A stretch of DNA of 58,906 nt from Stramenopiles sp. TOSAG23-6 (lineage: Eukaryota): positions 1 to 58,906 of the forward strand of contig LT635917.1 of the NCBI GenBank assembly GCA_900128565.1, written 5' to 3'. The translations under genes were made by a program, and so were the position numbers. The notes under the pieces were generated by a model. The model was not told the origin of the DNA. It ran no database searches and was given only the letters and a program-made list of their open reading frames with translations. How positions within the stretch are numbered: the stretch's first letter is position 1; the number at the start of each line of letters is the position of its first letter. Below, in pieces: positions 8,676 through 58,906 of the stretch.

Positions 8676-8717
8676 TCTAGCATTTTATAAATAATATATT
8701 AAACAATTAATAGAATT

Positions 8718-8820
8718 GTATGTTTTTTTTTCCAATTTTTGTCTAATTTTTTTTTTCATACGAAATTTCGTACCTAACAAAAACATTTAGAAAATTCAAT
8801 TTTTTTTTTTTGAAAAACAA
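8718..8820 (+). repeat. Non-coding copy of the intron family (probable 3'UTR intron; 3' end uncertain)
   Basis: GTATGTTTTT at 8718 and CATACGAAATTTCGTACCTAAC at about 8757-8778, starting 43 nt after the stop codon. Confidence 0.7.
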
Positions 8821-26516: not shown

Positions 26517-26626
26517 GTATATTTTTCGTTAATTTAATAAAAAGACATCTTGTTTCTTTTGTTTTTTTTTGGTACGAAATTTTGTACCTAACAAAAACTT
26601 TTACAACATATTTTCTTACTATACGT
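26517..26626 (+). repeat. Non-coding copy of the intron family
   Basis: GTATATTTTT...GGTACGAAATTTTGTACCTAAC...CATATTTTCTTACTATACGT between RPLP1 and YIP1. Confidence 0.65.
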
Positions 26627-26856
26627 ATATAAGTTATTTCTTGTTTATTGAATATTTATTGATAGTATGCTTGACACAATTTTAATTATTGGAGCTTGTA
26701 CTTTCCCATGTTTATTAATTCTGTTTTTATGATTTTTATGATTTGTTGCGTAGAAATGAATTGCACAGATGTCACAAGTTGACTAAGTTGAATTACAACA
26801 CTAACAACATAGCTCTGAGACAGCTAAGAGATACTGAGATTACTTCACGTTTGTGC

Positions 26857-34255: not shown

Positions 34256-34417
34256 TGTTTCAATTGAAGCATTTCATTTTTGGTATTTGAAAGATTTAGT
34301 GATAAAGTTACACACGATAATCAAATGTCATCCATACACAATCTTTGGTACCACAAAGTGTCGTGCTATATATTGATACGGAATATTAATAATTATGTCT
34401 TGGCTTCTAAATCTTCG

Positions 34418-34447
34418 TTTTTTTCATAGATAATTTCGTACCTAACA
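34418..34447 (+). repeat. Degenerate non-coding core of the intron family
   Basis: TTTTTTTCATAGATAATTTCGTACCTAAC between convergent genes; no clear donor or acceptor. Confidence 0.5.
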
Positions 34448-34464
34448 TCTACGAAGTGTAATAC

Positions 34465-37400
34465 TCATTCCCAATCACTTCCCTCACTCTCTCCATCGTC
34501 AGAAAAATCACTTTCTGCAACATCTGAATACTTTCCTTCATCCTCATCATCATCAGAATCACACAAATTTGTGTAACTGATAGGTTTACGATTTCGACCA
34601 CCTCGCCGCGATGATTTCTCAGTATCCATTGATCTTTCATCAATAATATCACCATCGTCATCATCGATGACGTCATCAACATTAAATTCTTCTTCACTAG
34701 AAGATGTATTTTGGAAGAATATTTCAATTTGTTTTTCGTTAGGTACAAAATTTTTATAAAAAAATAAATTCGAAATTGAAAAAAAAATAAAACATACATA
34801 ATATTTCAATAGATTTCTTTTTTGCTACTTTCTTTTTTGATTTCACTTTGACTCTTTTTGCCTTTGGAGTCTTTGCTGTTGGTGATTCAGTTGATACATT
34901 TGGTTTCTGGTACAATTTTACTCGTTCAATCAAATCGGATTTCTTACCTTTTGTTGATATGCCATACTCTGCACAATATGTTTTCAAGACTGCAACTTTC
35001 ATTTTTTTCAATTCACCATTAGTGAATATTTTTTTCTGTTTAAATCCATCGCTTTGCTGAGACTTTGACTGAGGAGTATGAATTGTGAAAAAATACTATG
35101 TAGAAAAAAATCGTTAGGTACGAAATTTCGTATGAAAAAAAATTAGGTAAAAAAATTATCATGAAAACGTACATCCGCCTTATCAGTTTTAAAATTACTG
35201 TGCGATCGCTTTGTTGGCTTCGAAATCATTGGTGAAAATGTGTTTTCAGACACTGCAATTTGAGCCATTCGCCTGTTCTATGAAAAATATTTTTTTTTTT
35301 TACCGAAAATAAAAAAAATTGTTAGATACGAAATTTTCATAGTATAATAAATCAAAATTCAATTTTGGAAAACATACATGGATAATGGAAGATCATTGAA
35401 GTCTGAATCATCGGAGGAGTCATCGGATATATTCACGGTTTTTTTCATGATTTTTTTTGATTTTTCAGGATTTGGAATTGAAAGCGATGAAATATTAGAT
35501 GTTGGAGATTTTTTCGTTATTTTTGGTTCTTTTTTTACTTTTGGTTCAAAAAATTGAGAAATTGGTTTTGTGTTGGCTTTTGCTTTTACATTCTCGTTAC
35601 TTGCTTCTTCTTTTACTTTCTCTTTTTTTACTTTTGGTTTCTTCTTCACGACTCTCTTGCGTCTTTTCTTTTTATTACCATTTTGAGCAGCTTCCTTCGC
35701 TTCTCTTTCTGCATCTGCATCGGCTTGCATAGCATCTTCAAAACGTATAATAGATGCTTCTAAAGCAATGAGATCGGCCTCCCATAATTCCTGAATAGAA
35801 GTTTTTTGAAGTAATCGCATTACAGCAGTTTTTTCATCAAGTTCCTTTTTCAACTTTTGGACTTTTTCGACAGTAAGTGACCGAATATTCATATTCAGCA
35901 TATAATCGTACCCACGCTCACGAGTTTGCTTTTCTTTTTCTTCATCATCTTTCTTCTTTTCCTTCTTTGAAGCTGGTTGAATAAGCACATAACCATTAAT
36001 CTTCATTTCAGCCACGAGTTCGGCCTCTTTCCTCCTGGAAATTACAAGTTTACCTTCAACGACTTCAGTCACAAAACGCATTTGGTTTGCAAGACGTGTG
36101 TGTTCAGCTTTCAAAGTCTTTAATAAATGGCGTTTGCGGTGTCCATACATACGTAAACGTGTTTTATAGAAGCGGTCAATAATACTTGAAATAGTTTTAA
36201 ATTTCGTGACTTTTTCAGACACAGTTTCACTTTCAATCTCTGGCATGGCCAAAGGTGCATTATCAACGATCATAGAATCCATCACAGGAACAATAGCCGG
36301 AGCTTCTTCATTTTCATTAAATTCGGTCGCTGGTGGAAGACCCGGTTGGACTAGAATCATATTCGAATTGGAAAGTTTTGAAGTCATCTTAAAATCACTT
36401 AAAAATGTTGCATTTTTCAATGGTTCTTCTCCGTAATCTACAGTAGGTGCTAGAGTTATAGTGAAACTGACGGTTGCATCTGTATGGTTTTCGTTATAGT
36501 CAACAACGAGTTGCTTTCTAGGCTTACTATCAGTCTTTTTCTTTCCCTTCGATTTCGATTTTGATTTCGATTGATTCTTTTCAGGTTCGGATAAAACTTC
36601 GAGTAATTCTTTGAATTTTTGAGTCCACATTCCGACAGGAAGTTCAGAAATATGAAGGATTCCTCCAGGACCTGGTTCGATCACTTCGACCAAGCCTTTA
36701 CACATAAACCCAAACGCATTCTTTTTCTGAAATACTTCTGTCGTGCCTTGAAAACCACGATACCAGGGAACAAGGTTTTTAGCTACAGTAATAGAATCAC
36801 CTCCTGATAGTAATTGACGAAGACAATTGATAATATCTTTGGGATTGTAATTAGGAATTTCTGTAGACCAACCCGTACCAATACCAGCACATCCATTAAC
36901 AAGCACAAGTGGAATAACTGGACAATAGTATGAAGGTTCAACACTTATACCGTCATCATCAAGGTAATCAAGTATAGCATCATCATCGGGATGAAAAATA
37001 TGTCTTGTAATTTCAGCTAATCGAGTAAAAATATAACGAGGTGACGCTGAATCTTTTCCACCTTGAAGACGTGTACCAAATTGACCACCAGGATATAAAA
37101 GGTTGAGATTATTAGAACCAACATAATTTTGTGCCATACCCACAATTGTACCCATTAACGACGCTTCACCATGATGATACGCAGCATGCTCAGAAACGTA
37201 TCCTGCAAGCTGTGCTACTTTCAGCTCTTTGGTTAATTTACGTTTAAAACAAGCAAAAAGAACTTTTCGCTGAGATGGTTTGAGTCCATCAATGAGGTTC
37301 GGGATGGCTCGTTTTACAGAAGCCTGAGAAAACAAAACAAATTCCTTATTGAAAAAATCTTTGTATGTCATTTCTTTCATGGAAAAATCTACGTACGTCC

Positions 37401-39788
37401 CAGCTTTCACTGCACCAATCCAATCCTTCCTTGCATGTATTTTGGAAAAATATTTCAAAAAAAAACAATTAAATTTGTTAGGTACAAAATTTCGTATGAA
37501 AATGTTTTTTCGAATTAAAAAAAAAATAAAACATACATCAGCATTATCTTTTGAAAAGGCAAGTTTAATCAGTTCAGCATCACCATCAATCCATTTGAAT
37601 GGGATGACATTAGTATCAAGATTAGCAAAATATTGCTTTGCTTCTTTAGAAGTTGAAGTACCAAGACCTTTATAATACTTGATATGCCAACCTTTCTGTT
37701 TTGGTAAAGTTTCATTGCCTTCCTCATCAATTCCAAGAATATTACGAGACTTCCAAGTCTCATACTCAGGAACTGTATGAAACAAAATTTGCTTCTTATT
37801 TCGTGTTACTTTTACAATCGGTGTTATAAATTCTTTGATAAAACCTGGAACTTGCATTAAAGAGGGATTAAACCAGTGTAAGAAATTCAAAAGTAGCCCT
37901 TTAATATGAGATCCATCGTAGTCTTGATCAGCCATAATTAAAATTGAGCCATACCGAAGTTTCTTAATATTTTCTGTGTCATACGAGACATCTCGTCGAA
38001 TTCCCATAATTTTAATAATGTTTTGGATTTCATCATTATTTGATACCTGAGAATGCTTTGCTTCGCGTACATTTAAAGGCTTCCCTATAATAAAAAAAAT
38101 GTGTACAGTTTTGAAATTTGTTAGGTACAAAATTACATACGAAAAAAAAATCAAATTGAAATGATAAAAACATACCTTTTAAAGGAAAAACACCATAAAA
38201 ATCTCTGCCTACAATGGAAAGACCAGAAACGGCAAGTGTTTTTGCAGAATCTCCCTCAGTCAGAATAAGCGTACATATGTAATTTTAGGAAAATATTTCA
38301 AAAATTGATTTTTTTTGTTAGGTACGAAATTTTGTATTAAAAAACATGGAAATGTATGATGATGAAAACGTACTGATAACTCTTTGAAGTACCAGCCTTA
38401 TTTGCATCATCTAATTTCGGAATCCCACGAATTTTTTTCAACTTTGTCGCTTGCTTACCAACGTTACGAGACCGAAAATTAGCAAATTGCATTGCCGCAT
38501 CCACGATTCCCATACTCTTTGACACAACTTTCTTCAATATTGCAGGAGACAAAATTGCAGAAGAACCGAAATCTTTATGCTGAGTAGTCAGAGCTTCTTT
38601 TGTCTGTGAATCAAATGATGGATTTTCGATAAGGCAATTGATAAAAACACAAATGAAGTTTTTTGTTGCTGCTTTACTTAACGCTTTGGCTTTCTTATTT
38701 TTTCGTGCACATTCTTTTTGAATAACAGAAACGAGTTGATTCACAATAAAATCAACATGAGTTCCACCTTTAGTAGTAGCAATACTGTTCACAAATGAAA
38801 CTTGTTCGAAACGTGTTCCATCACTAGGACAAATCGAAATTTCCCAACGATCATTCAAGCGTTCGTGAAGCATTTTCGTAGATCGGCCCTCTGCAGCCAA
38901 CGTCGAGAGACAGGATCGTGAACATAATTTCACATAATCTGGAAAGTTTTTGATGTGAAGTTTCTCGCCATTAAGATACACACGAACAGATTTATCAGTA
39001 ACACCGGCTAAATCATAAGTACGTTTTTTGAAAATATTACATATTTCTTCATTTAATTCAAACATTCCAAATTTTTCAAGGTCTGGTTTGAAAGTTATCT
39101 TTGTATACGATTGAGTTTTATGAGCATCTGTGATTACAGGCGACTCTGTCTTTGTCATATTGTTACGAAAAACTTGAACGTATTTCTTTTTCAATTTTGA
39201 GTCAACTGTTTCAACAATAAACTTTGTGGAGAAAATATTAGCAAGCTTAGCACCAAAGCCATTTCGACCGCCTGTGACTTTTTTCTTATCATCGTTGTAA
39301 TTTGAACCAGTAAGAAGATTTCCAAAAATTAATTGAGGTACATACATTTTCTCTTTCTTATGCATCTGTACAGGTATTCCCTTCCCATTATTGGCGACGG
39401 AAACAGTCCCAGACTCGCGGTTAATGCAAACTTTGATCCACGTCATCCCTTCTGGATCACGCTGTTTATTGTCAGCTGCATTTACGAGAATCTCATCAAA
39501 TATCTTAAAAAGAGCTGGAACATATGTACACGTCTTGCGAACTAGGCGACCTCCTTTATCTGCTAAATCTTCAAAATTATCTGCTGCAGGAACGTCCGCG
39601 TTTTCACTTGATGTTGGGAGAACAGCGGGGACATCCGTAAAAGTCCACGTATCATACGTAGTTGGTTGAACACTACCAACATAAGTATCTGGGCGTAATA
39701 GAACATGCTCTCGCTGATTTACTTTTTTGTAAATATTTTCTACCCTATTTGGAGTCAATGTCTGGCGTCTGTTGAAGTTTTCCGACAT
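34465..39788 (-). CDS. TOP2: DNA topoisomerase II with C-terminal SAP domain; exons 39788-38374, 38276-38176, 38084-37537, 37434-35378, 35272-35173, 35077-34798, 34703-34465
   Basis: EHVLLRPDTYVGS, DEILVNAADN, GGRNGFGAK, TEGDSAK, PLKGKPLNV, DQDYDGSHIKG, YYKGLGTS, DGLKPSQRK, YHHGE, SPRYI. Six family introns restore a continuous frame. Confidence 0.97.
34704..34797 (-). other. Family intron, GT-AT, 94 nt
   Basis: TAT|GTATGTTTT...TTTTGTACCTAAC...CCAAAATACAT|CT opens the acidic TOP2 tail; the nearby TAG gives another frame. Confidence 0.8.
35078..35172 (-). other. Family intron, GT-AT, 95 nt (in-frame CAG 9 nt downstream also possible)
   Basis: GAT|GTACGTTTTC...TTTCGTACCTAAC...CACAATTCAT|ACT. 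Confidence 0.75.
35273..35377 (-). other. Family intron, GT-AG, 105 nt
   Basis: AT|GTATGTTTTC...TTTCGTATCTAAC...AATATTTTTCATAGAACAG|G; the second AG is the in-frame one. Confidence 0.82.
37435..37536 (-). other. Family intron, GT-AT, 102 nt, in-frame and stop-free
   Basis: Removal converts FSKDNAD[34 aa]ARKDW into the conserved FSK..AD.RK.W helix. Confidence 0.9.
38085..38175 (-). other. Family intron, GT-AG, 91 nt
   Basis: AAAG|GTATGTTTTT...TTTTGTACCTAAC...ATTATAG|GG restores PLKGK. Confidence 0.92.
38277..38373 (-). other. Family intron, GT-AT, 97 nt
   Basis: CA|GTACGTTTTC...TTTCGTACCTAAC...AAAATTACAT|A restores SYQCTLILTEGD; contains an in-frame stop. Confidence 0.92.
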
Positions 39789-40054
39789 GTTAAATATCAA
39801 TGTTCGTATGTCAGGCAAAATTTTCTTTTCAAAGCACACTATTTATTGTTTAGGAAGTCGTCTTTTTTTTTTTTTTTGATGTGAAAAATATCATTTGAAT
39901 TCCCGCCAAAAAAAAATACTGATGTCACAAAACTGCTCGACGTCGTAAACAAAAAAAACCTAAATCTCTATTATTTTATATTTTTTAAAATAAATTAAAA
40001 TCCACATTCCTCGGAAACAAATTTAATTTTCAAACTACTTTGACTTTTTGAGAA

Positions 40055-43340: not shown

Positions 43341-44559
43341 ATGAATAACTCTTTTCATGAGAAACCCTCTCTGTATACTGTAGCAACACATTCTGTGGAA
43401 AGTTTAGAAAATTTTTGTAGTACTTGGGATAGCTCTAGTGATTGCTTTCCTGATAAGCTTCTAGCTCCACTTCCTTTGACAACTCCAAATCCAACCAAAA
43501 TCCAAAAAAGAAAACAACACGATGACACATCTTCGTACACTTTTGAAGGGGAAAACATATTGAAGACGAAAAATGTATCACGTCGTCTAGAAAAATGTGC
43601 TTCAAAACTTAAAATACCTATAAAATTTTTNTCTCCGGCCGCTTGGCGTGGTGTTATGCGGAATGTACCAGCCTCGTACCGTGATGAATCACGTAAAGCT
43701 TTGGCAAAACAAACTTTTATGAACACAATTGTTGCGAAAGCATCTAGTAAGGAGCATGTTATTTTAATTTCCAGAAATAAGCCTCGAATGGTAGGTACTG
43801 GTCGCATTCTTGTCCTTGTTGGGCTAAAATACCGAGGAAACGTTGGAAGTATTGTCCGGTCTGCCGTGCAAGCAAACGCATTTGATGAAATATATTATGT
43901 GGAAAATAGATCGTCAGATGAGGAGTATCTCAATTTGACAACTCTTGTGAAGCGAAAAGATGGTAAAACTGGAGAGGATGAATCTGAACATGGTATTCCT
44001 GGTTATGAACTCAAAACAAAAAAACGAATGCGGGTGACTGATAAAGAAGTGGACTACTTTTCTATTTTTAATGCTCCACTGATTCCGTTTCGAAGATTTA
44101 AATCCGTGGGTGATTTTATGAGTGTTGCCTCTAATGAATTAGTGACGGTAAACAGTTCTTGTAATTCTGGTGTTTCTAATATTCCGAATGAAAACTTAGT
44201 TACAATGAAAACTACAAACGGGCGGGTAATGGTTGCATTAGAATGCTGTGACTCTGCTTTCGACATGTATGTTTTCAACGTTCAAAATTTCAAAAGCAAA
44301 TTGTACCAAATTTTGTACCTAATTTTTTTTTTCTTTAAATATTTTCTCAAAATACATTTACAGTGAAGATGCTAAGAATATTTTAGCCAAGGAAGATTTG
44401 TATCTTGTCATGGGTGCTGAAGATATCGGTGTGCCCATGGAAATAATGAATTCTTGTAGTGCTTTAGTAAAAATACCAGCATTGTCCGCTTCAGTCAATG
44501 TTTCGTGTGCTTTTAGTGCAGTACTGACTATTCTTAAAGACTTAGATTACAATAAATAA
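43341..44559 (+). CDS. SpoU/TrmH-family (SPOUT) RNA 2'-O-methyltransferase; exons 43341-44266, 44358-44559
   Basis: GNVGSIVRSA; second exon LVMGAEDIGV and VKIPALSASVNVSCA. Confidence 0.85.
44267..44357 (+). other. Family intron, GT-AT, 91 nt (in-frame CAG at 44363 also possible)
   Basis: CAT|GTATGTTTTC...TTTTGTACCTAAT...AATATTTTCTCAAAATACAT|T. Confidence 0.78.
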
Positions 44560-45223: not shown

Positions 45224-48200
45224 TTATCGCAACTCTTCAACAATGTTAGAACCTTCTTGATTATTTGATCTTTCACTGTCGCTTGATAAACTACTTTGGT
45301 TTCTTTTCTGTGCCCTCATCAACGCTGGGTTCATTTTTTTCTGTGCAGCAATAACAGTTTTCAAAATTGAAGCTTCATTTTCAAGTTTTTCTTCTTCAGT
45401 GGGTTCTCTCTTTTTGGTCCTTTGTCCCGTCCGAGCGTAGTGTAACTGCAATTCTGCTAGCTTTGCAGCATTCTCTTTTGCCAGGTCAGGTAAAGGAAGA
45501 CCTTGGGAATCTGTTCCTCGTGGGGCAAATAAACGATCTAAGTTTTTCCTTATGACATCACAACCTGGCATAGTTTTTATAAAAGTAGCAATGCCATCCT
45601 CGGTCATTCTATGACACTGGCTAATATCACAAGATTTCAGAGCTGGGCAACATTTACTTAAACTGGCTAATGAAACGTCAGTCAGTAAAATGTCCCATGT
45701 AACATTCAAGATTCTGAGGGTGTTAAACGACTCTGAAATATACCCGAGCCCTTTGTCAGTTACATATTTGCAGTGTGAAATGTCCAACTCTTCGATGAAA
45801 AGTTGTTCTGCCAAAACTTTCAGCCCAGCATCTGTTATCTGTGTACAAAATGAGAGGTTAAGTCGATGGACTCTATTCATTCTTTGTGCAATAACGGACA
45901 TTGATGCGTCAGATACCTTTGGGCAACCTGCAAGAGAAATATATTCCAGATTTATCATATTATCAATAAATCCTTCAATTGCCTGGTCTGAAAGCGCGAG
46001 TATATGACCCAAATCAATCTCTACAAGTCCTAGATGTCTTGACTCGCCCTTTTCTTCATCGAGAAAGAAGTTTTTCCAAAGTGAATCCACATCTAAATTA
46101 GTGCAACTATTTAGCTGCAACTTATGGAGACTTTTAGCACGCTTTGCGATACCAAGAATAGCATGGTTTGAAAGTGAAATACAGTCGTTCAAAAAGATGC
46201 TTGATATTCTTCGAAGCATCAATCGCTGAGCTTCAGGTCGACCATCACCGACTTCATCAAACCAGAAACAGTCATCGGTGATATATGGAAGGTTTGTCAA
46301 GTCTAGCCATTCCAATTGCCAACAATTGTGTGTCAAATTCTTTATGGATTTATCAGTCAATTGTGGCAAATGAGCGAGATCTAAAGTTGTAAGGCATGTG
46401 AACGTTTTACTAACAGAGAATATAGCATCATCTCCAATACGACTACAGCCTCGCATCTTCAACTCTTTTAGTTTACTTCCAAATGGTGCAGTGTCAGCCC
46501 ACGATTTTACTCCTTTAGTAGTTACGTGAACGCACCATGTTAAATCAAGGTATTCAAGTTTGCAACATCCTTTCGCTAAACTTGAAATTGAAACATCTGT
46601 AATAAATTTACAATGTCGGATATCTAGTTCACGTAAATCATCACAATGTTTTGTGATTTCACACAATCCCAAATCACTTACGCGAATGCAACCAGCAATA
46701 TTAAGACGTCGAAGCCTACCACAAGACTCGCCAAGACACTGCATCGCATCATCAGTAATTGTTCTACAATTTTCGATGTCTAACTTTTCAAGAAATTTCA
46801 TTCTTTCTGTCATACTGTTGAGAATAGTATCGTTCAAATGCTCGGCGCGATTTAATTTAAGTTGTAAAACATTTCGACAGTTGTAGCAAATGGCAAGTAA
46901 ATCACTTGCTGGTGCGTCTTCAAGATCTTCTAAATCAATGACATCAGTGGGCAGCATTCGCTGTGCACGATCTACAAAAAATACCACAATACGGGGATCA
47001 TGAATTTCATGAAGCCATCCGAGGTGTATATCATTGTAAATGTCAGGTTGTACATGGAGAGCGTACTGATATATTTCTGCAGCACATCTGACATATTTAA
47101 TTGGCATTCCTGGCCTCATTAGACCAAATTTAATGGGAATGTATGCCAACTTTGTAACATTATCTTCAAAAAATGCTGGGTTAATCTCTTTTAGAGCTTC
47201 CCAAATATCCAAACAAATATCTGCAAATGTTGGATCGCCAGTATCCGGAAGACCTTCGAACATTGCTGCTGCTCCTGCTGCGTTCTGACCATTACGAAAC
47301 ATCAACAGGGCGTCTTTTATTCTTGCCCTATACTCGGCTTCACCCCGTTTACGATCAGTGCCGTACCCAAAATGATTACACAATGCAGACGCGTAGGCAA
47401 CAAGTGTATTTCTATCATATGGATTTTCATTAAGCACTCGTTTAAAAGACAACGATGCAAGATAATATAGGCGATCTGACTCAAGACGAAGATCTGATGT
47501 ACCCATGAGGTAGTGCTCGTGAGCATGTTCAGCGGTGAGGCCAATGCGGTAAAATGCAACTTGCTGTACAGTACCAATGAAGTATTTCCCCCCATCGCCA
47601 TCAGAAGAACCAATGCGTAATGGCATTCGAGATCGCTCAATCATTGCTGACTTCATATGTTCTTCATCTACCTGAATTGCCTCCCGTCGCCGATTGCAGC
47701 TATTTTGAATATCCTTCATAAAACTATTTTGCCTCTCCCTTATTAAACCTTGTCGAACTATATCTTCTGCTTGCCTCTTAGTAATTCGAATGATTCCCTC
47801 TTCTTTTAATTCTGCATCAGTCTTTTTTGATAAACTAATCTTCAGAGTTGTCTCTTGATAGAGTTTCATGGCTGTTTTTAGCATTTCACGCTTTGCTTCC
47901 GGGTTTTTCAATTCTTCTGCAATAACTTTTCGAGCACGTGCCTCGCATTTTATTGATTCTGTGTTTTCTTCATCTTTAATTCGGATTAATTCTTTCGCAC
48001 GAAATTTCGTATGAGCTTCTTTCGCTTCTTTTACGGATCTTGTGACATCCAGAAAAGCAACAAGATGACCATTAATGTACATTCGGCATTGACCACCATC
48101 GTATGTACACACAATATGATACCAAGTATTATATTCAAATGGTTTCGGTGATTTGACTCGTAAATTTACCATTTCCAGAGGCATGTATACAAGAAAAATC

Positions 48201-51200
48201 CAGTAATTAGCTTTACTTGCCTGTAATAAGAATCTTCCATTTTCAATTAAAACCTTTTCTTTCTGAGGTGCACCTGTTACTTTTGTCCAGCACTCAATAG
48301 AAAAGTGAACTTTTGGCTGCATAGGGCATAACAGGTCACTCGCCGTGAAATCAACGTGTGCTCTTGCACCTTCTACGAACGCAATGCCTTTTGAACATAA
48401 TGCATCTTCGGCCGAATCATTTTTTACAAATCCATCCGCACGGAAACGAACTGCACGAGAGTAACGGCCATTTAATTTTTCTCCTGCGGAGCCTAAATTC
48501 TTTGCATGTTTACTATTGACTAAATCATCCAGTGGCCAGTATCCTACAGGAGGATCAGAACCATCTTTCGGTGTAAGTATACGGGCACGATATGTTGTAT
48601 TTCCTGCCATTTTTGCATCTGCGGCTAATACTGAACCTTTTGAATAATGCCGAAGTTGTTCTACACTGAGGCGAATTCGAGCAGATACATTATGTATATC
48701 GGGCACTTCAAATCTAAAACAAACGGGCTGTAATTCAAATCGCTCCTTTGTAGGTGCAGTTACTTCAATCTTCAACATCTCACATAATCGCGACAGTGTA
48801 GGTACTAGATAATTTTCTGTCATTATTGTATGTAATCTCCAACGTTCAATACCACTTAATGCAAATCGACCAAATCGTTCTTCAATTGCTAACATCACAT
48901 CTTCAAGCCAGAATTTACCGTATCCAGGTGCAGCACCAGTCATTAAATTGAAAATATGACATGCAACTTCTGCAAAAGCAGATTCTGAAAATAATTGCTG
49001 GATTCTAGCAGACTCACGGGCTTGGACACGAATTATTCCTTTTAACGCACGAGCAGCCATTTCAACAAGTAGAGATGAACGTACGGCATGACTATTTGCT
49101 TCATTCTTAACCTCACCAGCATACACCTCTATATCGCCCTCTGGTTCATCGTTCACTGGCGGATGCACAGGAATTTGGATATTATCCCATTCACCATCGG
49201 CCCTTACTTTATAATAGGACGACCCGATACGAAGTTGGCTCCCTCGGCGAATTTCTAATCGCCAATCTTTATTACAGAGTATATGTTTCTTTCCGAATTC
49301 AAGCCCAGCAGTTCCGTCAAGTTTGCGCCAGAAGCGTGACCGAATTTCACCAAGTAACCTCATATTCATCCCTCGAGTATGCATCTCACCAGACCAAAAA
49401 ATAGCTTCTATTTCGCTCGCAGATCGATTTGACACCTCCTCTGCAAAATCAGTTACAATCTCATGTATAAGTTGATGTGTCGCGGCAGTGCATTCTGCAC
49501 CATCTTTAACAGCTTGAATGCGATCACCATTATGTGCAACCAAATTAAATGCATCTGAGCTGAGTGGTTTATCTAACGCGTGCAAAAGCTCCGGCCTGAA
49601 ATGACGCCAAAATATCGACTGACCTCGAGCTGATGAAGATTGACCTAGTCTTTTGGAAAGTACATCAAAATCAATGGGAGGAAAGGTTCTACTTGGGTTA
49701 AGAATATAGAACTTACCATCAGTCCCCACATAACAACGAGTATCAAATGCAGTAAATGCATCGCATGCCATCATATCATCTCGACCCTTAACTCTGTGTT
49801 CTTTTATATTTAAACGTGCAGCAGCTTGCTTCAAGTATGATTGAGCATCTTGGTTCTTCATTGTAACATGAAATCCTCTGTCTATTGAGCCAAATACAAG
49901 TTTTTCTTGTAAACCCAGAAGCTTGCCTTTTTTATCGCGTTCTTCGTGTACAATTGGAAGTATCGCTGTACAAAGAACACGGAAACCAAGAAAATCTACG
50001 ACACACTGTAAAGGCACTCGAAGTTTAGGAATATTGCATCGATAATACGCCATTGTAGCTCTTAATTCAGCACCCCCCATCTTCATCGCTGCTTGGTCAT
50101 TTCCATTGTAAACGCCATGATAGTCTAATAATACTTTGAAGCGGATTCCATGGAAAGCAAATTTTTCTCTTACAAATCTACCCCCATCGCCTTTCTTAAC
50201 TGCAAATGGTTTGGCTAATTTTTCTGAGCGGGGCATGAAGAATTCTTTCACTATTTTTTTGGCATGTGTTTCTGCAGTATCAACAAAAAGGTCAATGACA
50301 AGATGCATTTCTTTATACTTTTCATATTTTTGCGCTGGTGTTCTTTCTGGCATTTCCGAAGCATGATAAAATCTCTCAACCCAATTAGTCCGATCATCGG
50401 GAGATACTTGCATCATTTGTAGAGCAGCATTAGCATCATCACCAACAGCTTCTTGCACACGAACTATTTTACTAATTCGCTCTTTTTCGCGCTTCGCTTC
50501 TTTTAGTTTAAGTTCAGCTTCCTCTACAGCAGCCATTCTTCTTTTAACCTTTTGAGAAAGGTGTTCTAATTTATCCCGCATTTTCTTTTTATTCGCTTCA
50601 AGGATTTGCATTGCACGCTCTGGGTCTTCCTGGCTTTGAGCCATCAAAATGGCTCTTTCTGCAGCTTCTTTTTGCACACGCAATGCTTGCCCTGCACGAT
50701 ATTCAACCATTGCTTTCAACGTCGCATCTCTTTTCCGTTGTAACGACAAAGCTCTATTTGTCATTTTACCGTATTCAAGATCAGTGTGTAATATTCGTTT
50801 CAAAGATTTTGCAAAAGCAACTGCCCATTCCTCTCGAAAATTAAAGTTATTTACATAATGCTCAGCAATCTGTGGGAGAGGCCAGAACCTAAATTTCTGT
50901 AGTAAAATACGCTTACTTGGACACTCTAAAAGCAAATTTCGAGCTTTGTGCTCAGTAACGAATTTGTGCATCCAGCGCATCCTTTCATACAATTGAGTAT
51001 AGCTAGGATCAGGTCTCGCCATTTCTAGTCTCAATAAAAACTCAGATGACTCTTCCCCCCCTCTAAATAGTTCTGCAGCTTCAGGTAATGCTTCTTGCGC
51101 TCTGACAAGAGCTCGTTTGCGTTCTGTATCAGGTAGGTTGGGAGGCGGACGTACTTTATTTCCAATCATCGTTCTGAATGCATTGACTGCATTATCTGAA

Positions 51201-53845
51201 AGCCCTTTCATTCTAGCCATATCATCAAATCTACGTTCTACCTTTTCCCACATGACAGCTATTTGTTCAGCCATCATAAGTTGTATAATGTCATCACGTG
51301 TTGGTTTCTTACCTTTGTCGCTGAGAGATTGTTTCATTTGTCGCATGCGGACCTTTGCATTCCATTTAACTTTTCTCTGACCGACCATATTTTCTTTTTT
51401 TTCAAATTCTACACGTACTCGTTCAGCTGCACCCTGCTTGGCTCGTTTAAGAGCTTTGAGGAGCGCAGCACGTTCTTTAGTGACAATAGTACCATGTCGC
51501 CCTTGTCGTCCCCTAAATAAAGTTTGTATTTTTTCTGAAGCTTTCATTAAGATTAAATTATCATGAACTTCAGCGTTTTCATACCACCCGTGTTTCAATG
51601 CAACTGTCTTTCCACCACCACCTGTATTCCGTGGCATCATATCAGCATAATTTGGTTTGAGAGGATCGGACCTACCCATTAGAAGCGCACGCTTATGTAT
51701 CCTCGATTTATTAGCATTTCCCAAGAGGGGTCTAAATTTAGTTGCATCTTTATTCATACTGTTGATAAAATTCGACATAGTGATCATTCCTGCTTGTACT
51801 TGTTCTATACACGACATGTGCAACAATTGGAATTCGCTCATATGGGTGTATCTGTGTGGCAATCCAAGTAATTCGGAAAAGAACATAGAGCTATGTATTA
51901 GTTCAAGACACCATTCACGAAATCTATGCTGACTGAGAAAATTCGTACCACCACTATCATATTTAAATGCTCGAGCTACAAGCCCTTGTAGTTCTGAGTT
52001 GGTAGCCCTTCGTGATGGTTCCACATTTGCAAGACTTTCAATACCACGTGTAGCTCGTACTAATAAATTAAGTAGATCTTCCTTTGTCATCTTTTCATCA
52101 CCTACTTCATGAGATGTTTTGAAGTGCCAATATGCCCAATCCATTTTTTCTCGAAGAGATGATGGTAAATACATATTATTCGAATTTTTACCACAAAAGA
52201 AAACAACAAGAAGAAAGATATCTCGCAAATCTGCACCTGGAGCTCCGAGTTCATTGGCAGCATCAGGTGTAAGTTCTAACACAGCTTCAAATAAAACTGA
52301 AAATTTCGCTTCGCGAACACGCAATCTTTCTGCAAATGCTTGCTTATCACGAAGATATTTCAACTTCTCTTCGCTTTCATCGAATACTTTCTTTGCAGCA
52401 TCAACTTCACCTTGAAGCATGATGATAATCCCGCGTGAAATAGTATCATCACCTTCAGTTTTTTCTTTCAAGTCTTCTTGTTTTTCTTTCCATTTCTTTT
52501 TATTTTGATTCCAACGTCTTCCCATCAGTCCAATTTGTTCCTGATATCGATTATATAGTACAAGACCACGTGGCATTTCCATTAGAAGAGACTCTTGTCT
52601 CAAAGCAGTGTGGTACGTTTGTCGAAGACTCTTTTCTTTACTATTTGCTTTCATATCATTTTCCCGTGCTTTCTTCAAGCTTAATGCATCTTCCTTCTTT
52701 TCTTTTGCTTTTACCTTGTCTTCTATACCTTGCCATGTTTTCATATATACTTTATACTCATCAGGGTCCAGTGCCTTTTCATTCGTGCGCCTTTCTTTTT
52801 CTCGTTTTAAGCTTGCTTTTTCTCGTCGCTCTTTTCGCGATTCTTGTGCATCTTTACGTCGTTTTTGTTCCTTTTCTATGGATACTAGATGCTCTTGAAG
52901 CTCATTGTCATTGATAGAGAAATCCTGTGGATCATAGGCATCTTCCTCCAAAACAGATTTCTCCGATTTTGAGAGTATTTCAGATTCTAAATCACTTGCA
53001 AGTCTCGAGCTAAAACCAATAAAAATGGGGCTCATAATTTTGACGTCGAAAGCTTTTTTCAAAAGTTTTTTTCGAGCATATTCTATTATTATTTCGTCTT
53101 CATCAGTCCAATCTTCATCATCATCCTCATCGTCGGATATAAAAGCATCAACGTCCATGTCCTCACCATCATTAAAAGCATCTTCGTCATCCTCATTATC
53201 ATCATTTTTTAAAAGAAGTTTCCTTGATCTAGGTCGAGTTTTTTTTGATCTTTTTTTACGTTTTTTTCGTTTTCTATTATTTTCAGCGTTTTCTTGCTTT
53301 TTGCGAAATTCCCTTTCACGTTCCAATTTAGTTTTCTTTCTTCTTGGTTTTGAGTTTCCCTCTTTTTTCTTAACACGACGCTCTAGAAGGAGATCTTCAT
53401 CGCTAGTATCGTCTTGTATGCTCGACGACATATTCTTTTTCTTTTTCTTTGGGAAAAATATTTGATGCTGTTTTTCATTTGAAGCATCATCATCTGATTC
53501 TATATCTATCTGTGGAAAGTTTCTTAAATAATGCTCTTCTTTATTAAAATGTCCTATTTCCATGGCATATTCCTTTACAGCTGGATGCCAGACACTTCGA
53601 GTTTTTGCCCTTTGATCGGAGTCTATTTTGCGAGATATATTCTCAATTACCTTGAAAAATTCAGACCAATATACCCTCCAAGATCCATCTTGAAACCCTT
53701 TGAACATTTTGATAGCCTCAGTAGCATCATGGGCACTCCAGCGTTGAAATATTTTATCTAGATCATTCTCACGGATTGCATCCACAACTTCTGGCGCGAG
53801 GCGAACACCAGTAAGAGAGAAACCACAACCAAGTGAGGCTCCCAT
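45224..53845 (-). CDS. Giant single-exon protein: EF-hand-like/IQ + Clu domain + LamG/ConA-like domain + cysteine-containing LRRs
   Basis: Clu-like VPLQCVVDFLGFRV, GTDGKFYILNPSRTFPP, EMHTRGMNMRLLG, LVEMAARALK; LamG-like FSIECW..WYHIVCTYDG..MYING; many LxxLDLxxCxxITD repeats; MGASLGC N-terminus. Confidence 0.8.
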   Translation of the reverse strand: MGASLGCGFSLTGVRLAPEVVDAIRENDLDKIFQRWSAHDATEAIKMFKGFQDGSWRVYWSEFFKVIENISRKIDSDQRAKTRSVWHPAVKEYAMEIGHFNKEEHYLRNFPQIDIESDDDASNEKQHQIFFPKKKKKNMSSSIQDDTSDEDLLLERRVKKKEGNSKPRRKKTKLEREREFRKKQENAENNRKRKKRKKRSKKTRPRSRKLLLKNDDNEDDEDAFNDGEDMDVDAFISDDEDDDEDWTDEDEIIIEYARKKLLKKAFDVKIMSPIFIGFSSRLASDLESEILSKSEKSVLEEDAYDPQDFSINDNELQEHLVSIEKEQKRRKDAQESRKERREKASLKREKERRTNEKALDPDEYKVYMKTWQGIEDKVKAKEKKEDALSLKKARENDMKANSKEKSLRQTYHTALRQESLLMEMPRGLVLYNRYQEQIGLMGRRWNQNKKKWKEKQEDLKEKTEGDDTISRGIIIMLQGEVDAAKKVFDESEEKLKYLRDKQAFAERLRVREAKFSVLFEAVLELTPDAANELGAPGADLRDIFLLVVFFCGKNSNNMYLPSSLREKMDWAYWHFKTSHEVGDEKMTKEDLLNLLVRATRGIESLANVEPSRRATNSELQGLVARAFKYDSGGTNFLSQHRFREWCLELIHSSMFFSELLGLPHRYTHMSEFQLLHMSCIEQVQAGMITMSNFINSMNKDATKFRPLLGNANKSRIHKRALLMGRSDPLKPNYADMMPRNTGGGGKTVALKHGWYENAEVHDNLILMKASEKIQTLFRGRQGRHGTIVTKERAALLKALKRAKQGAAERVRVEFEKKENMVGQRKVKWNAKVRMRQMKQSLSDKGKKPTRDDIIQLMMAEQIAVMWEKVERRFDDMARMKGLSDNAVNAFRTMIGNKVRPPPNLPDTERKRALVRAQEALPEAAELFRGGEESSEFLLRLEMARPDPSYTQLYERMRWMHKFVTEHKARNLLLECPSKRILLQKFRFWPLPQIAEHYVNNFNFREEWAVAFAKSLKRILHTDLEYGKMTNRALSLQRKRDATLKAMVEYRAGQALRVQKEAAERAILMAQSQEDPERAMQILEANKKKMRDKLEHLSQKVKRRMAAVEEAELKLKEAKREKERISKIVRVQEAVGDDANAALQMMQVSPDDRTNWVERFYHASEMPERTPAQKYEKYKEMHLVIDLFVDTAETHAKKIVKEFFMPRSEKLAKPFAVKKGDGGRFVREKFAFHGIRFKVLLDYHGVYNGNDQAAMKMGGAELRATMAYYRCNIPKLRVPLQCVVDFLGFRVLCTAILPIVHEERDKKGKLLGLQEKLVFGSIDRGFHVTMKNQDAQSYLKQAAARLNIKEHRVKGRDDMMACDAFTAFDTRCYVGTDGKFYILNPSRTFPPIDFDVLSKRLGQSSSARGQSIFWRHFRPELLHALDKPLSSDAFNLVAHNGDRIQAVKDGAECTAATHQLIHEIVTDFAEEVSNRSASEIEAIFWSGEMHTRGMNMRLLGEIRSRFWRKLDGTAGLEFGKKHILCNKDWRLEIRRGSQLRIGSSYYKVRADGEWDNIQIPVHPPVNDEPEGDIEVYAGEVKNEANSHAVRSSLLVEMAARALKGIIRVQARESARIQQLFSESAFAEVACHIFNLMTGAAPGYGKFWLEDVMLAIEERFGRFALSGIERWRLHTIMTENYLVPTLSRLCEMLKIEVTAPTKERFELQPVCFRFEVPDIHNVSARIRLSVEQLRHYSKGSVLAADAKMAGNTTYRARILTPKDGSDPPVGYWPLDDLVNSKHAKNLGSAGEKLNGRYSRAVRFRADGFVKNDSAEDALCSKGIAFVEGARAHVDFTASDLLCPMQPKVHFSIECWTKVTGAPQKEKVLIENGRFLLQASKANYWIFLVYMPLEMVNLRVKSPKPFEYNTWYHIVCTYDGGQCRMYINGHLVAFLDVTRSVKEAKEAHTKFRAKELIRIKDEENTESIKCEARARKVIAEELKNPEAKREMLKTAMKLYQETTLKISLSKKTDAELKEEGIIRITKRQAEDIVRQGLIRERQNSFMKDIQNSCNRRREAIQVDEEHMKSAMIERSRMPLRIGSSDGDGGKYFIGTVQQVAFYRIGLTAEHAHEHYLMGTSDLRLESDRLYYLASLSFKRVLNENPYDRNTLVAYASALCNHFGYGTDRKRGEAEYRARIKDALLMFRNGQNAAGAAAMFEGLPDTGDPTFADICLDIWEALKEINPAFFEDNVTKLAYIPIKFGLMRPGMPIKYVRCAAEIYQYALHVQPDIYNDIHLGWLHEIHDPRIVVFFVDRAQRMLPTDVIDLEDLEDAPASDLLAICYNCRNVLQLKLNRAEHLNDTILNSMTERMKFLEKLDIENCRTITDDAMQCLGESCGRLRRLNIAGCIRVSDLGLCEITKHCDDLRELDIRHCKFITDVSISSLAKGCCKLEYLDLTWCVHVTTKGVKSWADTAPFGSKLKELKMRGCSRIGDDAIFSVSKTFTCLTTLDLAHLPQLTDKSIKNLTHNCWQLEWLDLTNLPYITDDCFWFDEVGDGRPEAQRLMLRRISSIFLNDCISLSNHAILGIAKRAKSLHKLQLNSCTNLDVDSLWKNFFLDEEKGESRHLGLVEIDLGHILALSDQAIEGFIDNMINLEYISLAGCPKVSDASMSVIAQRMNRVHRLNLSFCTQITDAGLKVLAEQLFIEELDISHCKYVTDKGLGYISESFNTLRILNVTWDILLTDVSLASLSKCCPALKSCDISQCHRMTEDGIATFIKTMPGCDVIRKNLDRLFAPRGTDSQGLPLPDLAKENAAKLAELQLHYARTGQRTKKREPTEEEKLENEASILKTVIAAQKKMNPALMRAQKRNQSSLSSDSERSNNQEGSNIVEELR

Positions 53846-54157
53846 GAATTACTGAGTTTAGCCAGAAAATTCGTCTAAATAATTAGTTGTACCAGAATTA
53901 TCCATTCTATCATGAAAGTAACATTGTAAGGAGAAGTTTTTCGAAAGACCTTGAATTTGGTGATACTAGTATGCAAATAAGAGAGATTGCTTCGGTTACG
54001 ATCTGATCTGAGTCAACAGTTACATTTTTCTAGCTAAATTCGAAATTCGCGACCGTTGGAAAAATTTGAAGAAGATACTCAACAAATAAAACAAACAACA
54101 AACAACAACAACACATTGATATAAGATCTCAGATCTAGCTATAATCTACTTCCAGGG

Positions 54158-56973
54158 ATGCTGCCTGGCACCCCAAGGGAATTACGGATTGCCATTTCAA
54201 ATGCAAAAAATAAATTGAGTGAATTACAAACAAATTTGCCGGATAGATTAAAAGAGCTTAAACATTTAAAGAATGAGTTATCCAAGGAGCAACTACAAAC
54301 TGAAGACTTGTGTGAAGACTTCTTGGATAAAACACTTGAAGCAAAGTCAAAATCAGCAGAGAAGGCTAAAGTAAATCGCGTAACATGGGATTGTCCTCGT
54401 AGAAGAATGAAAAATCGTTGGATTGGCACAGATCCTCATCCAAAAAGTGTTGATGCAATTGTAAAGAAAAAAACTGAGGAGACTATAAAAATAATAGAAA
54501 GACTCCGCTCAGAGCTATCCTTTTCACTATCGCGTGAGAAGGGAGTCACTTTACGAACGATCAAAATGATGGAACAAATTCGTGCTAGTATTAATTTGCA
54601 TAATATTACTAGAAGAAGTACTTTATTGACTCAAAGATTAGCTGACCTTTCTCAGAAAAAGGAGAACGATGATAAAAATGTAGAATTATCTAAAGCCAGT
54701 TCTTCAGACTATCATATCGAGACGTTAAAAGATAGAAAATATGAAAACCATTGTGAAATATTATTAAGGTATACTGAAATGCTGGACGATCCTATTTTCA
54801 TTGTGTTGTCAAGATTTGACGAAATAAATGATGAATGGGAAGAAATAGGACGAAGTGAGGTGTCTTCACAAGTTGACGGCACATCTCCGAGCTTTCTAAG
54901 AACAACTGTAATACCGACTGATGGTCGATCATACCCAATTAATATTAGTTTATATAGCATACAAATGGATGATAGGATTGCCATTAAGTTCGTAGGTTCT
55001 ACAGAAACCTCTCTTGCTGAGCTTGTGGATGATAATGGTCGTATGTTTTCATCATAATTGTTTTTACCTAAATGTTTTTTTCGTACGAAATTTTATACCT
55101 AACGATTTTTTTTTCAAATATTTTTTAGCATCGCATATGAACTGCATTTGTTTATTTATAAAAGAATTGGTGTCGAAGATTCGAAATCTGGAATCCTTTC
55201 ATTGCGTCTTTTACCAAACATGTTTAAAAAAATAAAGCATTACGACTTTGTTGGAACTCATCGAGAATGTACGTTTTATTTTTTTTTTCAATTTCGATTT
55301 TTTTTTCGTACGAAATTTTGTACCTAACGATTTTTTTTGAAATATTTTCCCAAAATACATGTGCAACATTTTGTTTATCTATACCAGATGTTGAACAGAT
55401 TACCCCGGGACTTCGTTTAATAGAACAAACTCAAGAATCTCCATTTTCCATCATCGTACCATTCCAACTTCTCGCAATATTTATCGAAAGGATAAAGAAA
55501 ATGATTGGATTCTTGAAAAGTTCAAATTTTGAAAATGTAACAACGAAACAGAAAATTCAAATTTCTGTAACTTTGAAACATCAATCAAATTTATTACAAG
55601 AATATCAAAATTATCTAAATGAATTAAGCGAATATAAACAACCTTTTCTTAAAACTGTTGATTATATACAAAACAAAACAGCACTGCGATTTGTTCCAAC
55701 AAATTGTCATTTAAATTCTATGCTACTTATTAATGGTAGTAACACAGAAACTATTTGCACTGTCACAGCTGGATTTCCTGCTGCTCATTCAGTAGGATTT
55801 CGTACAGGAGGTCTCCTTTCCCTCTGGGAGAAATTTCATGAAGCATCAGAAAAGTATAAAGATAAAGATGTCTTCAGTATCGGAAAAGAAGGACCATCGT
55901 ATAAAATAGACAAAGAAGTCTCAATAGCTAATATACATGATCTTGCTACACAAAGCATCAAAATAGCACGGCGTAGGGATGTCGTGTTTTCTCAGGCAAT
56001 GTCCATATTGATTTCAAGTTTTCAAGCACAGCTACGAGTGATGTCAGAAAAATCAGATTCATCGTATGCACGGTGGTGGAAGCGGCTGGTAGATGTTGGG
56101 TTTCTCATCCATTTCAGTACTTTTATTGAACTTGATGAAGACAGCAGAGCTCAACTGGAAGACATTGTAGATATAGTAAACTGCCTTCAAAATGTTCACA
56201 TACTTGTAACACAAAAAGAAGCACCAATGAACAGTGGTATTTGTATTCAATGCAAAAAAAAAGATTACGTTATAGAATTTTGGTCACCGGAAATAGATTG
56301 GAGTCGAGTTCCACATAAATATTTAAAAAGTCACCGAATTTCTATATTTCCAGTTCTTACAGCTCTAAATGTACGTATTGATAGGCTTGGCAAACATGTT
56401 GAAGCTTCTATGCTCTTGCAGAAAATTAATGAGACTGCTTTAACAGCATTAAAAGACTATCAAGATCAGATTCTGGAAGCAAATATTGGTGTAGCGGTTG
56501 CTGCTATGTTGCAGCCTAACTCGCATGGTATTGTGGAAGATGAAAAGTCAAGGAATGAAAAGGTACAATTATTAATTACGGAAATGAAAAATATACCAAA
56601 GCAGCCAGTACATAATTCCAAACAGACGTTTCGAGATTCTAGTGAATTACACGACGATGTTGTCGACTCTCTAATATTATTTCAAAATATAGCAATTCAA
56701 AGTGATTCAGGTCATGTGATTCTATGTGTAGATGGCATTGACATTTCTCACATGGTATTAACATTAGAGAATGCAGTATTTTTAGTTGAAAAGTATGGAC
56801 TATCACCAGAAGAGTTTAGTAAAATAATGACAGCGATAAGAAGTCGAGGTGTATCTCCTACAATATGCGAAAAAAATAGAAATTTACCTTTTTACAGATT
56901 TAGTCAGGATACCTCAGAGCATTTACCTCCATTTTTACGACCACCGAGAGAATCAATAAAGCAAAGTTCATAA
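54158..56973 (+). CDS. Inositol polyphosphate 4-phosphatase-like protein (C2 + INPP4 domain) with degenerate catalytic motif; exons 54158-55040, 55137-55268, 55361-56973
   Basis: C2-like EIGRSEV..SPSF; INPP4-like FVPTNCHL, GFPAAHSVGFRTGGL, DVVFSQA, VTLE-like LTLE; CVDGIDI in place of CKSAKDR. Confidence 0.75.
55041..55136 (+). other. Family intron, GT-AT, 96 nt
   Basis: C|GTATGTTTTC...TTTTATACCTAAC...AATATTTTTTAGCATCGCAT|AT; the TAG at 55128 is out of frame. Confidence 0.8.
55269..55360 (+). other. Family intron, GT-AT, 92 nt
   Basis: AAT|GTACGTTTT...TTCGTACGAAATTTTGTACCTAAC...CCCAAAATACAT|GT. Confidence 0.85.
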
Positions 56974-58843: not shown

Positions 58844-58906
58844 ATGTATTCTGGAAAAATATTTCAAAAAAAATCTAAAAAAAATTGTTAGGTACAAAAT
58901 TTCGTA
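58844..58906 (-). other. Family intron, 3' part only (ends CCAGAATACAT)
   Basis: TACGAAATTTTGTACCTAAC...AAATATTTTTCCAGAATACAT; truncated by the window end. Confidence 0.75.

Follow-up and report, generated by a model that had tools for sequence, protein, structure and literature searches.

A probable GT-AT intron at positions 55041 to 55136

The DNA analyzed here, hereafter the window, is a stretch of 58,906 nt of contig LT635917.1 from Stramenopiles sp. TOSAG23-6 (assembly GCA_900128565.1). It is eukaryotic, has a G+C content of about 36%, and is present in part in contigs of seawater metatranscriptomes. The target of the analysis is a 96-nt intron on the plus strand (55041 to 55136), a diverged copy of an intron family of the window (nhmmer E value, 2.5e-19) that begins with GT and, as judged by reading frame, ends in CAT. 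Its 5' splice site, GTATGTTTT (55041 to 55049), corresponds to the family consensus GTAYGTTTT with a per-column conservation of 0.9 to 1.0, and is followed by an exact match to the internal palindrome TTTCGTACGAAATTT (55079 to 55093) and by the branch-site-like motif TACCTAAC (55096 to 55103), detected by motif scan, the CTAAC of which lies at 55099 to 55103 and puts the putative branch A at 55102, 34 nt before the intron end. An AATAT box and its T run (55117 to 55126; column conservation, 0.8 to 0.9) open a conserved 3' module, with the box starting at 55117, 20 nt from the predicted end. Inside this module, a run of six T residues (55121 to 55126) and an AG (55127 to 55128) make up a decoy acceptor, TTTTTTAG (55121 to 55128), which lies 8 nt 5' of the CAT at 55134 to 55136; this CAT is in frame and occupies the family-homologous column.

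The upstream exon ends in phase 1. The original prediction stated that splicing to the AG at 55128 leads to a stop at 55235, whereas the CAT at 55136 keeps the frame into the next intron, and the frame analysis agrees on both points: the AG gives 34 codons and then a stop at 55233 to 55235, whereas the CAT leaves the frame open for 62 codons, beyond the next 5' site at 55269. Of the other candidate acceptors, CAT 55131 and AG 55164 fall out of frame, whereas an AG at 55178 that the prediction did not mention is likewise in frame. The predicted exon 2 (55137 to 55268, plus strand; 132 nt) is supported by codon score and homolog alignment, and an RNA contig links the 3' part of this exon to exon 3.

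The last 12 nt of the target align to the family without gaps and with five substitutions, and it is because of substitutions in this segment that the decoy AG is present. The codon score of the segment between the CAT and the AG at 55178 (55139 to 55177) is +2.03, compared with 4.10 +/- 3.17 for in-frame 13-codon windows and -7.47 +/- 7.09 for off-frame windows. An exhaustive protein search with the target gene retrieved distant homologs only, with identities of up to 38%; a word-based protein search with exon 3 as the query and a search of exon 2 against longer proteins gave no match, the tblastn matches of the distant homologs do not reach exon 2, and Pfam shows no family in the gene. In an alignment with 21 of these homologs, the first 14 residues of exon 2, starting with HELHLFIY, fall on a conserved x-L-x-L-x-L strand. 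A hidden Markov model (HMM) built from the 21 homologs alone scored the splice model ending at CAT 55136 at 263.6 bits with a single continuous match, that ending at AG 55178 at 259.1 bits with the match broken at the junction, and that with exon 2 skipped at 257.8 bits, also with a broken match.

The 3' end of the target is thus very probably CAT 55136, and we infer that the AG at 55128 is skipped in this copy. The target might instead use AG 55178, giving a product 14 residues shorter, or AG 55128, giving a truncated or decayed product, in which case this copy would be unremarkable. In favor of such splicing, AG 55178 is in frame, the target junction is crossed by no RNA contig, and the homology margin for the CAT is small. 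However, AG 55178 lacks a pyrimidine tract, and its use would itself pass over two AGs; the 14 residues lost with it match a strand found in most of the 21 homologs, and without them the HMM match breaks at that point. The codon score of 55139 to 55177 lies within the in-frame range, AG 55128 leads to a stop ahead of a conserved 536-residue region, and all other resolvable family copies end at the homologous position. Use of either AG is accordingly regarded as quite unlikely.

The intron family in the window

The target is one copy of a family of introns of 88 to 118 nt with at least 23 nhmmer matches in the window: a profile made from 14 copies detected 23 places at an E value of 3.1e-8 or less in 59 kb, nine of which were new. 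The family consists of GTAYGTTTT, the palindrome, TACCTAAC, AAATAT(T)n, and CAMAATACAT, and the conserved blocks of its alignment are GTAYGTTTT, TTTCGTACGAAATTTTGTACCTAAC, AAATATTTT, and CA.AATACAT. The TACCTAAC motif occurs 10 times, compared with 0.77 expected, and the palindrome, with up to two mismatches, 21 times, compared with 0.68 expected. Seventeen copies can be aligned over their whole length, with a mean pairwise identity of 0.70, and the last 24 or so columns require at most one or two gaps. The 5' site and the branch motif are the most conserved parts, TACCTAAC being the best-conserved internal motif. All of the 18 tabulated copies, 17 from the window and one from the unrelated metagenome contig L001, start with GT (GTAYGT in 16 and GTACAT in 2) and contain CTAAC or a near variant. 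The copies lie in genes for Pex19, Dak, topoisomerase II, a SpoU-like protein, a glycosyltransferase 61 protein, and others, and all genic copies are in the sense orientation relative to the host open reading frame (ORF). The boundaries of the copies coincide with the boundaries of the introns, according to four RNA joints, two cases of Pfam continuity, and the topoisomerase II alignment.

Ordinary, nonmobile introns could resemble one another in this way if the splicing signals of the genome were very strict. A scan of the window for non-family GTAYGT...CTAAC introns found no convincing one, a result in favor of this view. However, the likeness spans the whole length of about 95 nt, including the palindrome of 12 to 15 nt and the 5' third of the intron, and extends to degenerate copies outside genes (8717 to 8790 and 26559 to 26628) and to the copy in L001, so that this explanation is highly improbable. 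Degenerate or partial copies are found in AT-rich stretches outside long ORFs at 8717 to 8790, 26559 to 26628, and 34402 to 34448, all on the plus strand, in keeping with a mobile element whose insertions are not confined to genes.

The motif scan that found the copy in L001 hit this one contig; a scan of viral contigs gave no match, a metagenome protein scan found no relative, and Rfam shows no RNA family in the window. L001 also carries a tandem repeat of about 50 nt together with telomere-like CCCTAA/TTAGGG motifs (about 1890 to 2060 and 2270 to 2330), and one RNA contig fuses window sequence to CCCTAA repeats. At 37300 to 37966 and 54642 to 55975, the summed contig depth is in the hundreds to thousands over family-intron segments, compared with about 0 to 5 over the adjoining exons. 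Family sequences are abundant in RNA-library contigs, whether they come from unspliced RNA, lariats, DNA, or many loci.

Non-AG ends in RNA contigs and protein alignments

GT..AT and GT..AG junctions of the family both occur in RNA contigs, and the non-AG ends are real. All four joints coincide with the predicted introns to the nucleotide; each is represented by one contig, and the libraries sequenced in runs X3 and X4 were polyA libraries. In the topoisomerase II gene (35362 to 39842, minus strand), the intron at 38277 to 38373 (minus strand) is removed as GT..AT (joint 38276>38374; 97 nt skipped, ambiguity 0, side 95, run X3), and the 102-nt intron at 37435 to 37536 (minus strand) as GT...CAT (joint 37433>37536; 102 nt skipped, ambiguity 3, run X4). 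The next family intron of the target gene (55269 to 55360, plus strand) is also removed as GT...CAT (joint 55266>55359; 92 nt skipped, ambiguity 4, run X4), and the CCAG downstream of it at 55387 is unused. A fourth intron, at 38085 to 38175 (minus strand), has no AATAT box and is joined as GT..AG, with the end TAG (joint 38083>38175; 91 nt skipped, ambiguity 3, cut +1); a CAT 14 nt upstream of this end is unused.

Protein comparisons place further CAT ends. The Pfam Dak1 profile matches from 2 to 201 up to the last residue before the intron at 11467 to 11558 (plus strand; GT...CAT, 19 nt from box to end) and resumes at 203 on the first residue after it, and the Pex19 profile is continuous over the junction of the intron at 540 to 627 (plus strand; GT...CAT). 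The topoisomerase II protein spliced at the CAT ends reads ...SYQ-CTLILTEGDSA... and ...NAD-ARKDW..., without gaps against three homologs, and only the CAT ends restore CTLILTEGDSA (38277 to 38373) and ARK (37435 to 37536). The public gene model P0152 is identical to the window topoisomerase II at 1,178 of 1,185 aligned residues and forces AG acceptors at these two family introns, with the result that YVFIIIHFH replaces CTLILTE and ARK is lost. P0152 thus runs into family introns or splices them wrongly, and it also has many more internal deletions relative to the spliced topoisomerase II model. The introns at 37435 to 37536 (minus strand) and 18466 to 18555 (plus strand), of 102 and 90 nt, respectively, have lengths that are multiples of 3 and contain no in-frame stop, and therefore the host ORF reads through them; the former is nevertheless removed in RNA contigs despite its open frame.

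Precisely removed short, AT-rich elements that are flanked on either side by a 2-nt direct repeat are also what programmed DNA elimination would leave, as with the internal eliminated sequences of ciliates, and the apparently spliced contigs would then stem from a somatic genome without the elements; contigs from RNA libraries alone cannot exclude DNA. Against this, all genic copies are in the sense orientation, for which the chance would be about 2^-19 for 19 copies by our own arithmetic if orientation were irrelevant, the most conserved parts are the 5' site and the branch motif, the joints come from polyA libraries, and long ORFs read in the standard code. DNA elimination is barely credible as the source of the joints.

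Selection of the 3' end

The ends of the 18 copies were assigned by RNA (4 copies), Pfam continuity (2), or reading frame (9), and 3 are ambiguous. The terminal triplet is CAT in 15 copies and CCT, CAG, and TAG in one each. The distance from the branch-motif A to the intron end ranges from 33 to 49 nt in the 18 copies, the same range that the original prediction gave for the copies it had measured. The distance from the start of AATAT to the end in the 14 copies with a box is 19 nt (4 copies), 20 nt (7), 21 nt (2), or 22 nt (1), and no AATAT is found downstream of the branch motif in the other 4 (18466 to 18555, 35078 to 35172, 38085 to 38175, and L001), all of which end at the homologous place. 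The prediction that boxed copies end 19 to 21 nt from AATAT therefore captured a real cluster, with a range wider by 1 nt and with 4 of the 18 copies lacking the box.

From this spacing, the original prediction derived a ruler-like mechanism; in its strict form, a factor on AATAT(T)n would fix the cut about 20 nt downstream regardless of the bases there. Several copies are in line with it: in the target, the CAT at +20 from the box keeps the frame, in contrast to the AG at +12 and the CAT at +15; in the intron at 35273 to 35377, the frame is kept by the CAG at +19 and lost with the TAG at +14; the intron at 9766 to 9854 ends in CCT at +19; and the box is conserved at 0.8 to 0.9 per column. However, the distances of 19, 20, 21, and 22 nt each include CAT ends, the boxless copies share the homologous end, including the RNA-validated 38085 to 38175, and the rule AATAT+20 scores 7 of 18 (13 of 18 with +19 to +21). 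Validated copies with spacings of 19 nt (Dak1), 20 nt, and 21 nt (38277 to 38373, by RNA and unambiguous) are all CAT-ended, and hence the cut stays with the homologous bases when the T run or the tail becomes longer or shorter by one base. The cut shifts along with CAT instead of keeping to a set count; this spread with a constant CAT contradicts the strict form of the ruler, and the notion that the spacing is independent of the terminal bases is not supported. The clustering is far beyond chance but stems from homology of the conserved 3' module among the copies, and the constant spacing reflects mainly shared ancestry of this module rather than a ruler that reads AATAT, which is very unlikely.

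Alternatively, the branch point might lie in or beside AAATAT instead of in TACCTAAC, and the first usable site past a minimum of about 15 to 20 nt would be cut, similar to U12-type spacing. The unused AG and CAT sites at 12 to 15 nt from the box start, the used sites at 19 to 22 nt, and the conservation of the box, which equals that of the branch motif, are compatible with such an arrangement. It is opposed by the 5' site, which is GTAYGT and not RTATCC, by the poor pairing of AAATAT with the U2 or U12 branch-binding sequences, by the rank of TACCTAAC as the best-conserved internal motif, and by the 4 of 18 copies without a box, and is considered unlikely.

Simple scanning rules differ widely in how many of the 18 ends they recover. 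The first AG after the branch motif is correct in 1 copy and the first CAT in 11, and upstream CATs are passed over in six copies. A cut 9 or 10 nt after the end of the pyrimidine run accounts for 17 copies, missing the RNA-validated 38085 to 38175 (cut at +7, TAG), and the first Y-A-[G/T] located 6 nt or more beyond the run also accounts for 17, missing 9766 to 9854 (CCT, with no in-frame Y-A-[G/T]). A pyrimidine plus AG just after the T run clashes with the coding frame in three copies, namely, the target (TTTTTTAG), 35273 to 35377 (TTTTTCATAG), and the copy starting at 4659 (TTCTTCACAG), which argues that position matters besides sequence; in 35273 to 35377, an AACAG 5 nt beyond TTTTTCATAG fits the frame. 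The best fit is a window or exclusion zone beside the pyrimidine run in combination with a bias toward A-T or A-G, with the informative diverged copies being few and their ends placed by frame. The claim that a ruler on AATAT(T)n replaces first-AG scanning is thus partly supported: the result for the first-AG rule and the GT..AT joints in RNA contigs indicate that an AG is neither needed nor sufficient, whereas the terminal bases are not free and AATAT is unsupported as the anchor.

RNA structure was rejected as the cause of AG skipping. The AG of the target is unpaired in a fold of -1.7 kcal/mol, the RNAalifold consensus of the family (-0.74 kcal/mol) has five pairs, none of which joins the termini, and no conserved helix, and eight tails from branch motif to exon fold no better than shuffled sequences (z scores of -0.96 to +1.31).

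Further copies of the family

The following three introns lie on the minus strand. The intron at 35273 to 35377, assigned by frame, ends in AACAG, with TTTTTCATAG 5 nt upstream and out of frame. The intron at 9766 to 9854, assigned by frame and codon score, has ACCT as its sole homologous in-frame end and is preceded by the exon bases CT; the codon score of the following exon is +14.2 after CCT and +3.0 after the next AG. The intron at 4556 to 4659, also assigned by frame and codon score, ends either at the homologous position 4568 (CGT) or at AG 4556; TTCTTCACAG at 4573 is out of its coding frame, and the downstream coding frame scores +28.7, compared with -12.9 for the frame after the AG of TTCTTCACAG. 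CAT ends were placed by reading frame in the introns at 4872 to 4971 (minus strand), 9431 to 9548 (minus strand; 22 nt from box to end), 17286 to 17376 (plus strand), 18466 to 18555 (plus strand; 90 nt, no AATAT box), and 18731 to 18826 (plus strand), the last of which passes over two upstream CATs. By the same evidence, the end is ambiguous between CAT 34704 and TAG 34697 in the intron at 34704 to 34797 (minus strand), between CAT 35078 and TAG 35096, both in frame, in that at 35078 to 35172 (minus strand), and, with Pfam evidence in addition, between CAT 44357 and CAG 44363 in that of the SpoU-methylase-like gene (44267 to 44357, plus strand).

The copy at 29836 to 29929 (minus strand) has A for G as its first base (ATACGT; ATACGTTTT) and, in frame, TAA at the homologous 3' position, and may represent either a natural variant of the first and last bases or an inactive copy within an ORF that is open across it. 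The 3' part of another copy lies at the window end (58844 to 58906, minus strand), with CCAG 7 nt before CAT. In the copy at 8976 to 9086 (minus strand), near the end of a gene, both CACAG (8978) and the homologous TAT end are out of frame with the upstream ORF. The window also contains an intron-free ORF of 2,874 codons (45224 to 53848, minus strand) with a CLU (clustered mitochondria) domain, a laminin-G-like domain, and many leucine-rich repeats.

Direct repeats and a proposed origin and splicing mechanism

In 14 of 18 copies, the two exon bases in front of GT recur as the final two bases of the intron; the two informative non-AT cases, CT/CT and AG/AG, are among these copies. Judged from these boundaries, the 2-nt repeat fits a 2-bp target-site duplication in which the element and one copy of the repeat would be spliced out together; a target preference for AT could also yield most of the pattern, which is mostly AT/AT. 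On balance, the intron at 55041 to 55136 is probably an old copy of an introner-like family of mobile introns, diverged by substitutions only, with GT-AT ends and a position-dependent 3' site. The element carries a strong 5' site of the U2 type (GTAYGT), a branch motif close to the consensus (TACCTAAC), and a conserved 3' module made up of AAATAT, a T/C run, and a 9- to 10-mer ending in CAT. Splicing would take out the element including its last two bases, and the reading frame would be restored exactly because these repeat the exon bases before GT in most copies. The 3' cut would need no AG and would as a rule follow A-T, in some cases A-G; candidate sites up to about 5 nt from the pyrimidine run would stay unused, and the first acceptable site about 7 to 10 nt past the run would be taken. 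Both the exclusion zone and cutting by the major spliceosome are presumed in this scheme. More tentatively, and with less confidence than the assignment to a mobile family, the major spliceosome may no longer read a 3' AG here and, after GTAYGT, CCTAAC, and a U-rich tract, may cut at the first sterically reachable site about 9 to 10 nt on, with a terminal U replacing G.

A number of observations weigh against the mobile-intron scheme. The terminal inverted repeat measures only about 5 to 6 nt (ATGTA...TACAT) and RNAalifold gives no conserved helix, so that a DNA-transposon origin of the family is not shown. The AAATATTTT block, which is conserved as strongly as the branch motif, may well be functional. 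Twelve of the 18 ends taken as true were placed by reading frame alone, and 3 of these are ambiguous; the selection rules were fitted post hoc to the same 18 copies, and the two best each miss one of them. All four RNA joints are flagged "between: not known," and the contigs do not show the strand. At the target itself, no RNA contig spans 55040|55137, where the exon depth is about 0 to 2 and family repeats swamp the bin, and the in-frame AG 55178 trails CAT 55136 by just 4.5 bits.

Comparison with known intron systems

U12-type introns have the 5' site RTATCCTT and the branch motif TTCCTTRAC about 10 to 20 nt from the 3' end. The 5' consensus of the window family is GTAYGTTTT and its CCTAAC lies 33 to 49 nt from the end, and both features speak against an assignment to the U12 type. 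U12-type introns do resemble the family in that they have a narrow distance window for the 3' site and loosely tolerated terminal bases, and GT-AT is a documented pair (10.1101/2020.10.12.336362). Assignment to canonical U2-type GT-AG introns was rejected: the 5' GT and the branch motif agree with that class, and the 3' end departs from the YAG expected at the first AG past the branch, with 2 of 18 copies ending in AG.

Introners are transposon-derived intron families of Micromonas, Aureococcus, Chrysochromulina, dinoflagellates, and others, and are enriched in marine organisms; those of Chrysochromulina come with a 5' site of their own and recruit the 3' site from a target-site duplication (10.1101/2022.06.06.494994, PMC12130899, PMC11282704). 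Like the window family, they occur as many similar copies in unrelated genes, with one splice site borne by the element and the other boundary at a short direct repeat. The introners described have GT/GC/GA...AG ends, whereas the window family has AT in 15 of 18 copies, and a curation step for introners accepts only AG and AC 3' ends (PMC12130899). The window family further differs from introners in its direct repeat of only 2 nt, its short inverted repeat of about 5 to 6 nt, and the lack of any autonomous partner seen.

Other lineages share single traits with the family. The tunicate Fritillaria borealis has recently gained introns with transposon features and AG-AC/AG-AT ends that are processed by a modified major spliceosome, and divergent U2AF paralogs recognize the odd 3' ends (PMC13326754, PMC11282704). 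Non-AG 3' ends are common to both, and a recent, transposon-like nature of the introns may be as well, whereas the 5' end in Fritillaria is also noncanonical (AG...), and in the window family, with its yeast-like textbook 5' site and branch motif, only the 3' end deviates. The introner elements of Amoebophrya (Syndiniales) have direct repeats of 3 to 5 nt across the junctions and noncanonical splice sites (PMC7789003). They are alike in coming from a marine protist and in being repeated introns with direct repeats and noncanonical sites; however, inverted repeats of 8 to 20 nt pair the intron ends in Amoebophrya and there are no consistent terminal dinucleotides, whereas the window family has no such helix and runs from GT to, mostly, AT. 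The nonconventional introns of euglenids and hemistasiid diplonemids resemble the family in having borders other than GT-AG and repeats similar to target-site duplications, and they are suspected to derive from miniature transposons (PMC11282704, PMC12621601). These lack a U1-type 5' site and base pairing joins their ends, in contrast to the strong 5' site and branch motif and the absence of such pairing in the window family. A structure-defined intron of the euglenid or Amoebophrya type was rejected, since neither RNAalifold nor the folding of the 3' tails, which was no better than that of shuffled sequences, revealed a helix that brings the ends together. The combination of a canonical 5' site and branch motif, no pairing of the ends, and mostly AT ends thus sets the family apart.

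Implications

Few signals in eukaryotic genes are as constant as the 3' AG. Full-text literature searches, which did not extend to supplementary files, brought up no description of introns forming a GT-AT family or of introners with ends other than AG, and a word search of the MAST stramenopile single-cell genome paper examined found "splice" 0 times. A GT-AT introner-like family that gene finders mis-splice is a more interesting result than a ruler. Unrecognized GT-AT introns could distort gene counts and pseudogene calls in such genomes. A family with a textbook 5' site and branch motif and mostly AT ends, in which pyrimidine-plus-AG sites are skipped, would offer a natural test of 3' site selection in the second catalytic step, and it would extend the introner concept to an element whose removal needs no newly made AG. 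If the spliceosome indeed no longer reads a 3' AG here, a mobile intron that duplicates 2 bp would be excised exactly whatever the duplicated bases (AT, CT, or AG), which would explain how one element could have become nearly every intron seen in the 59-kb window.

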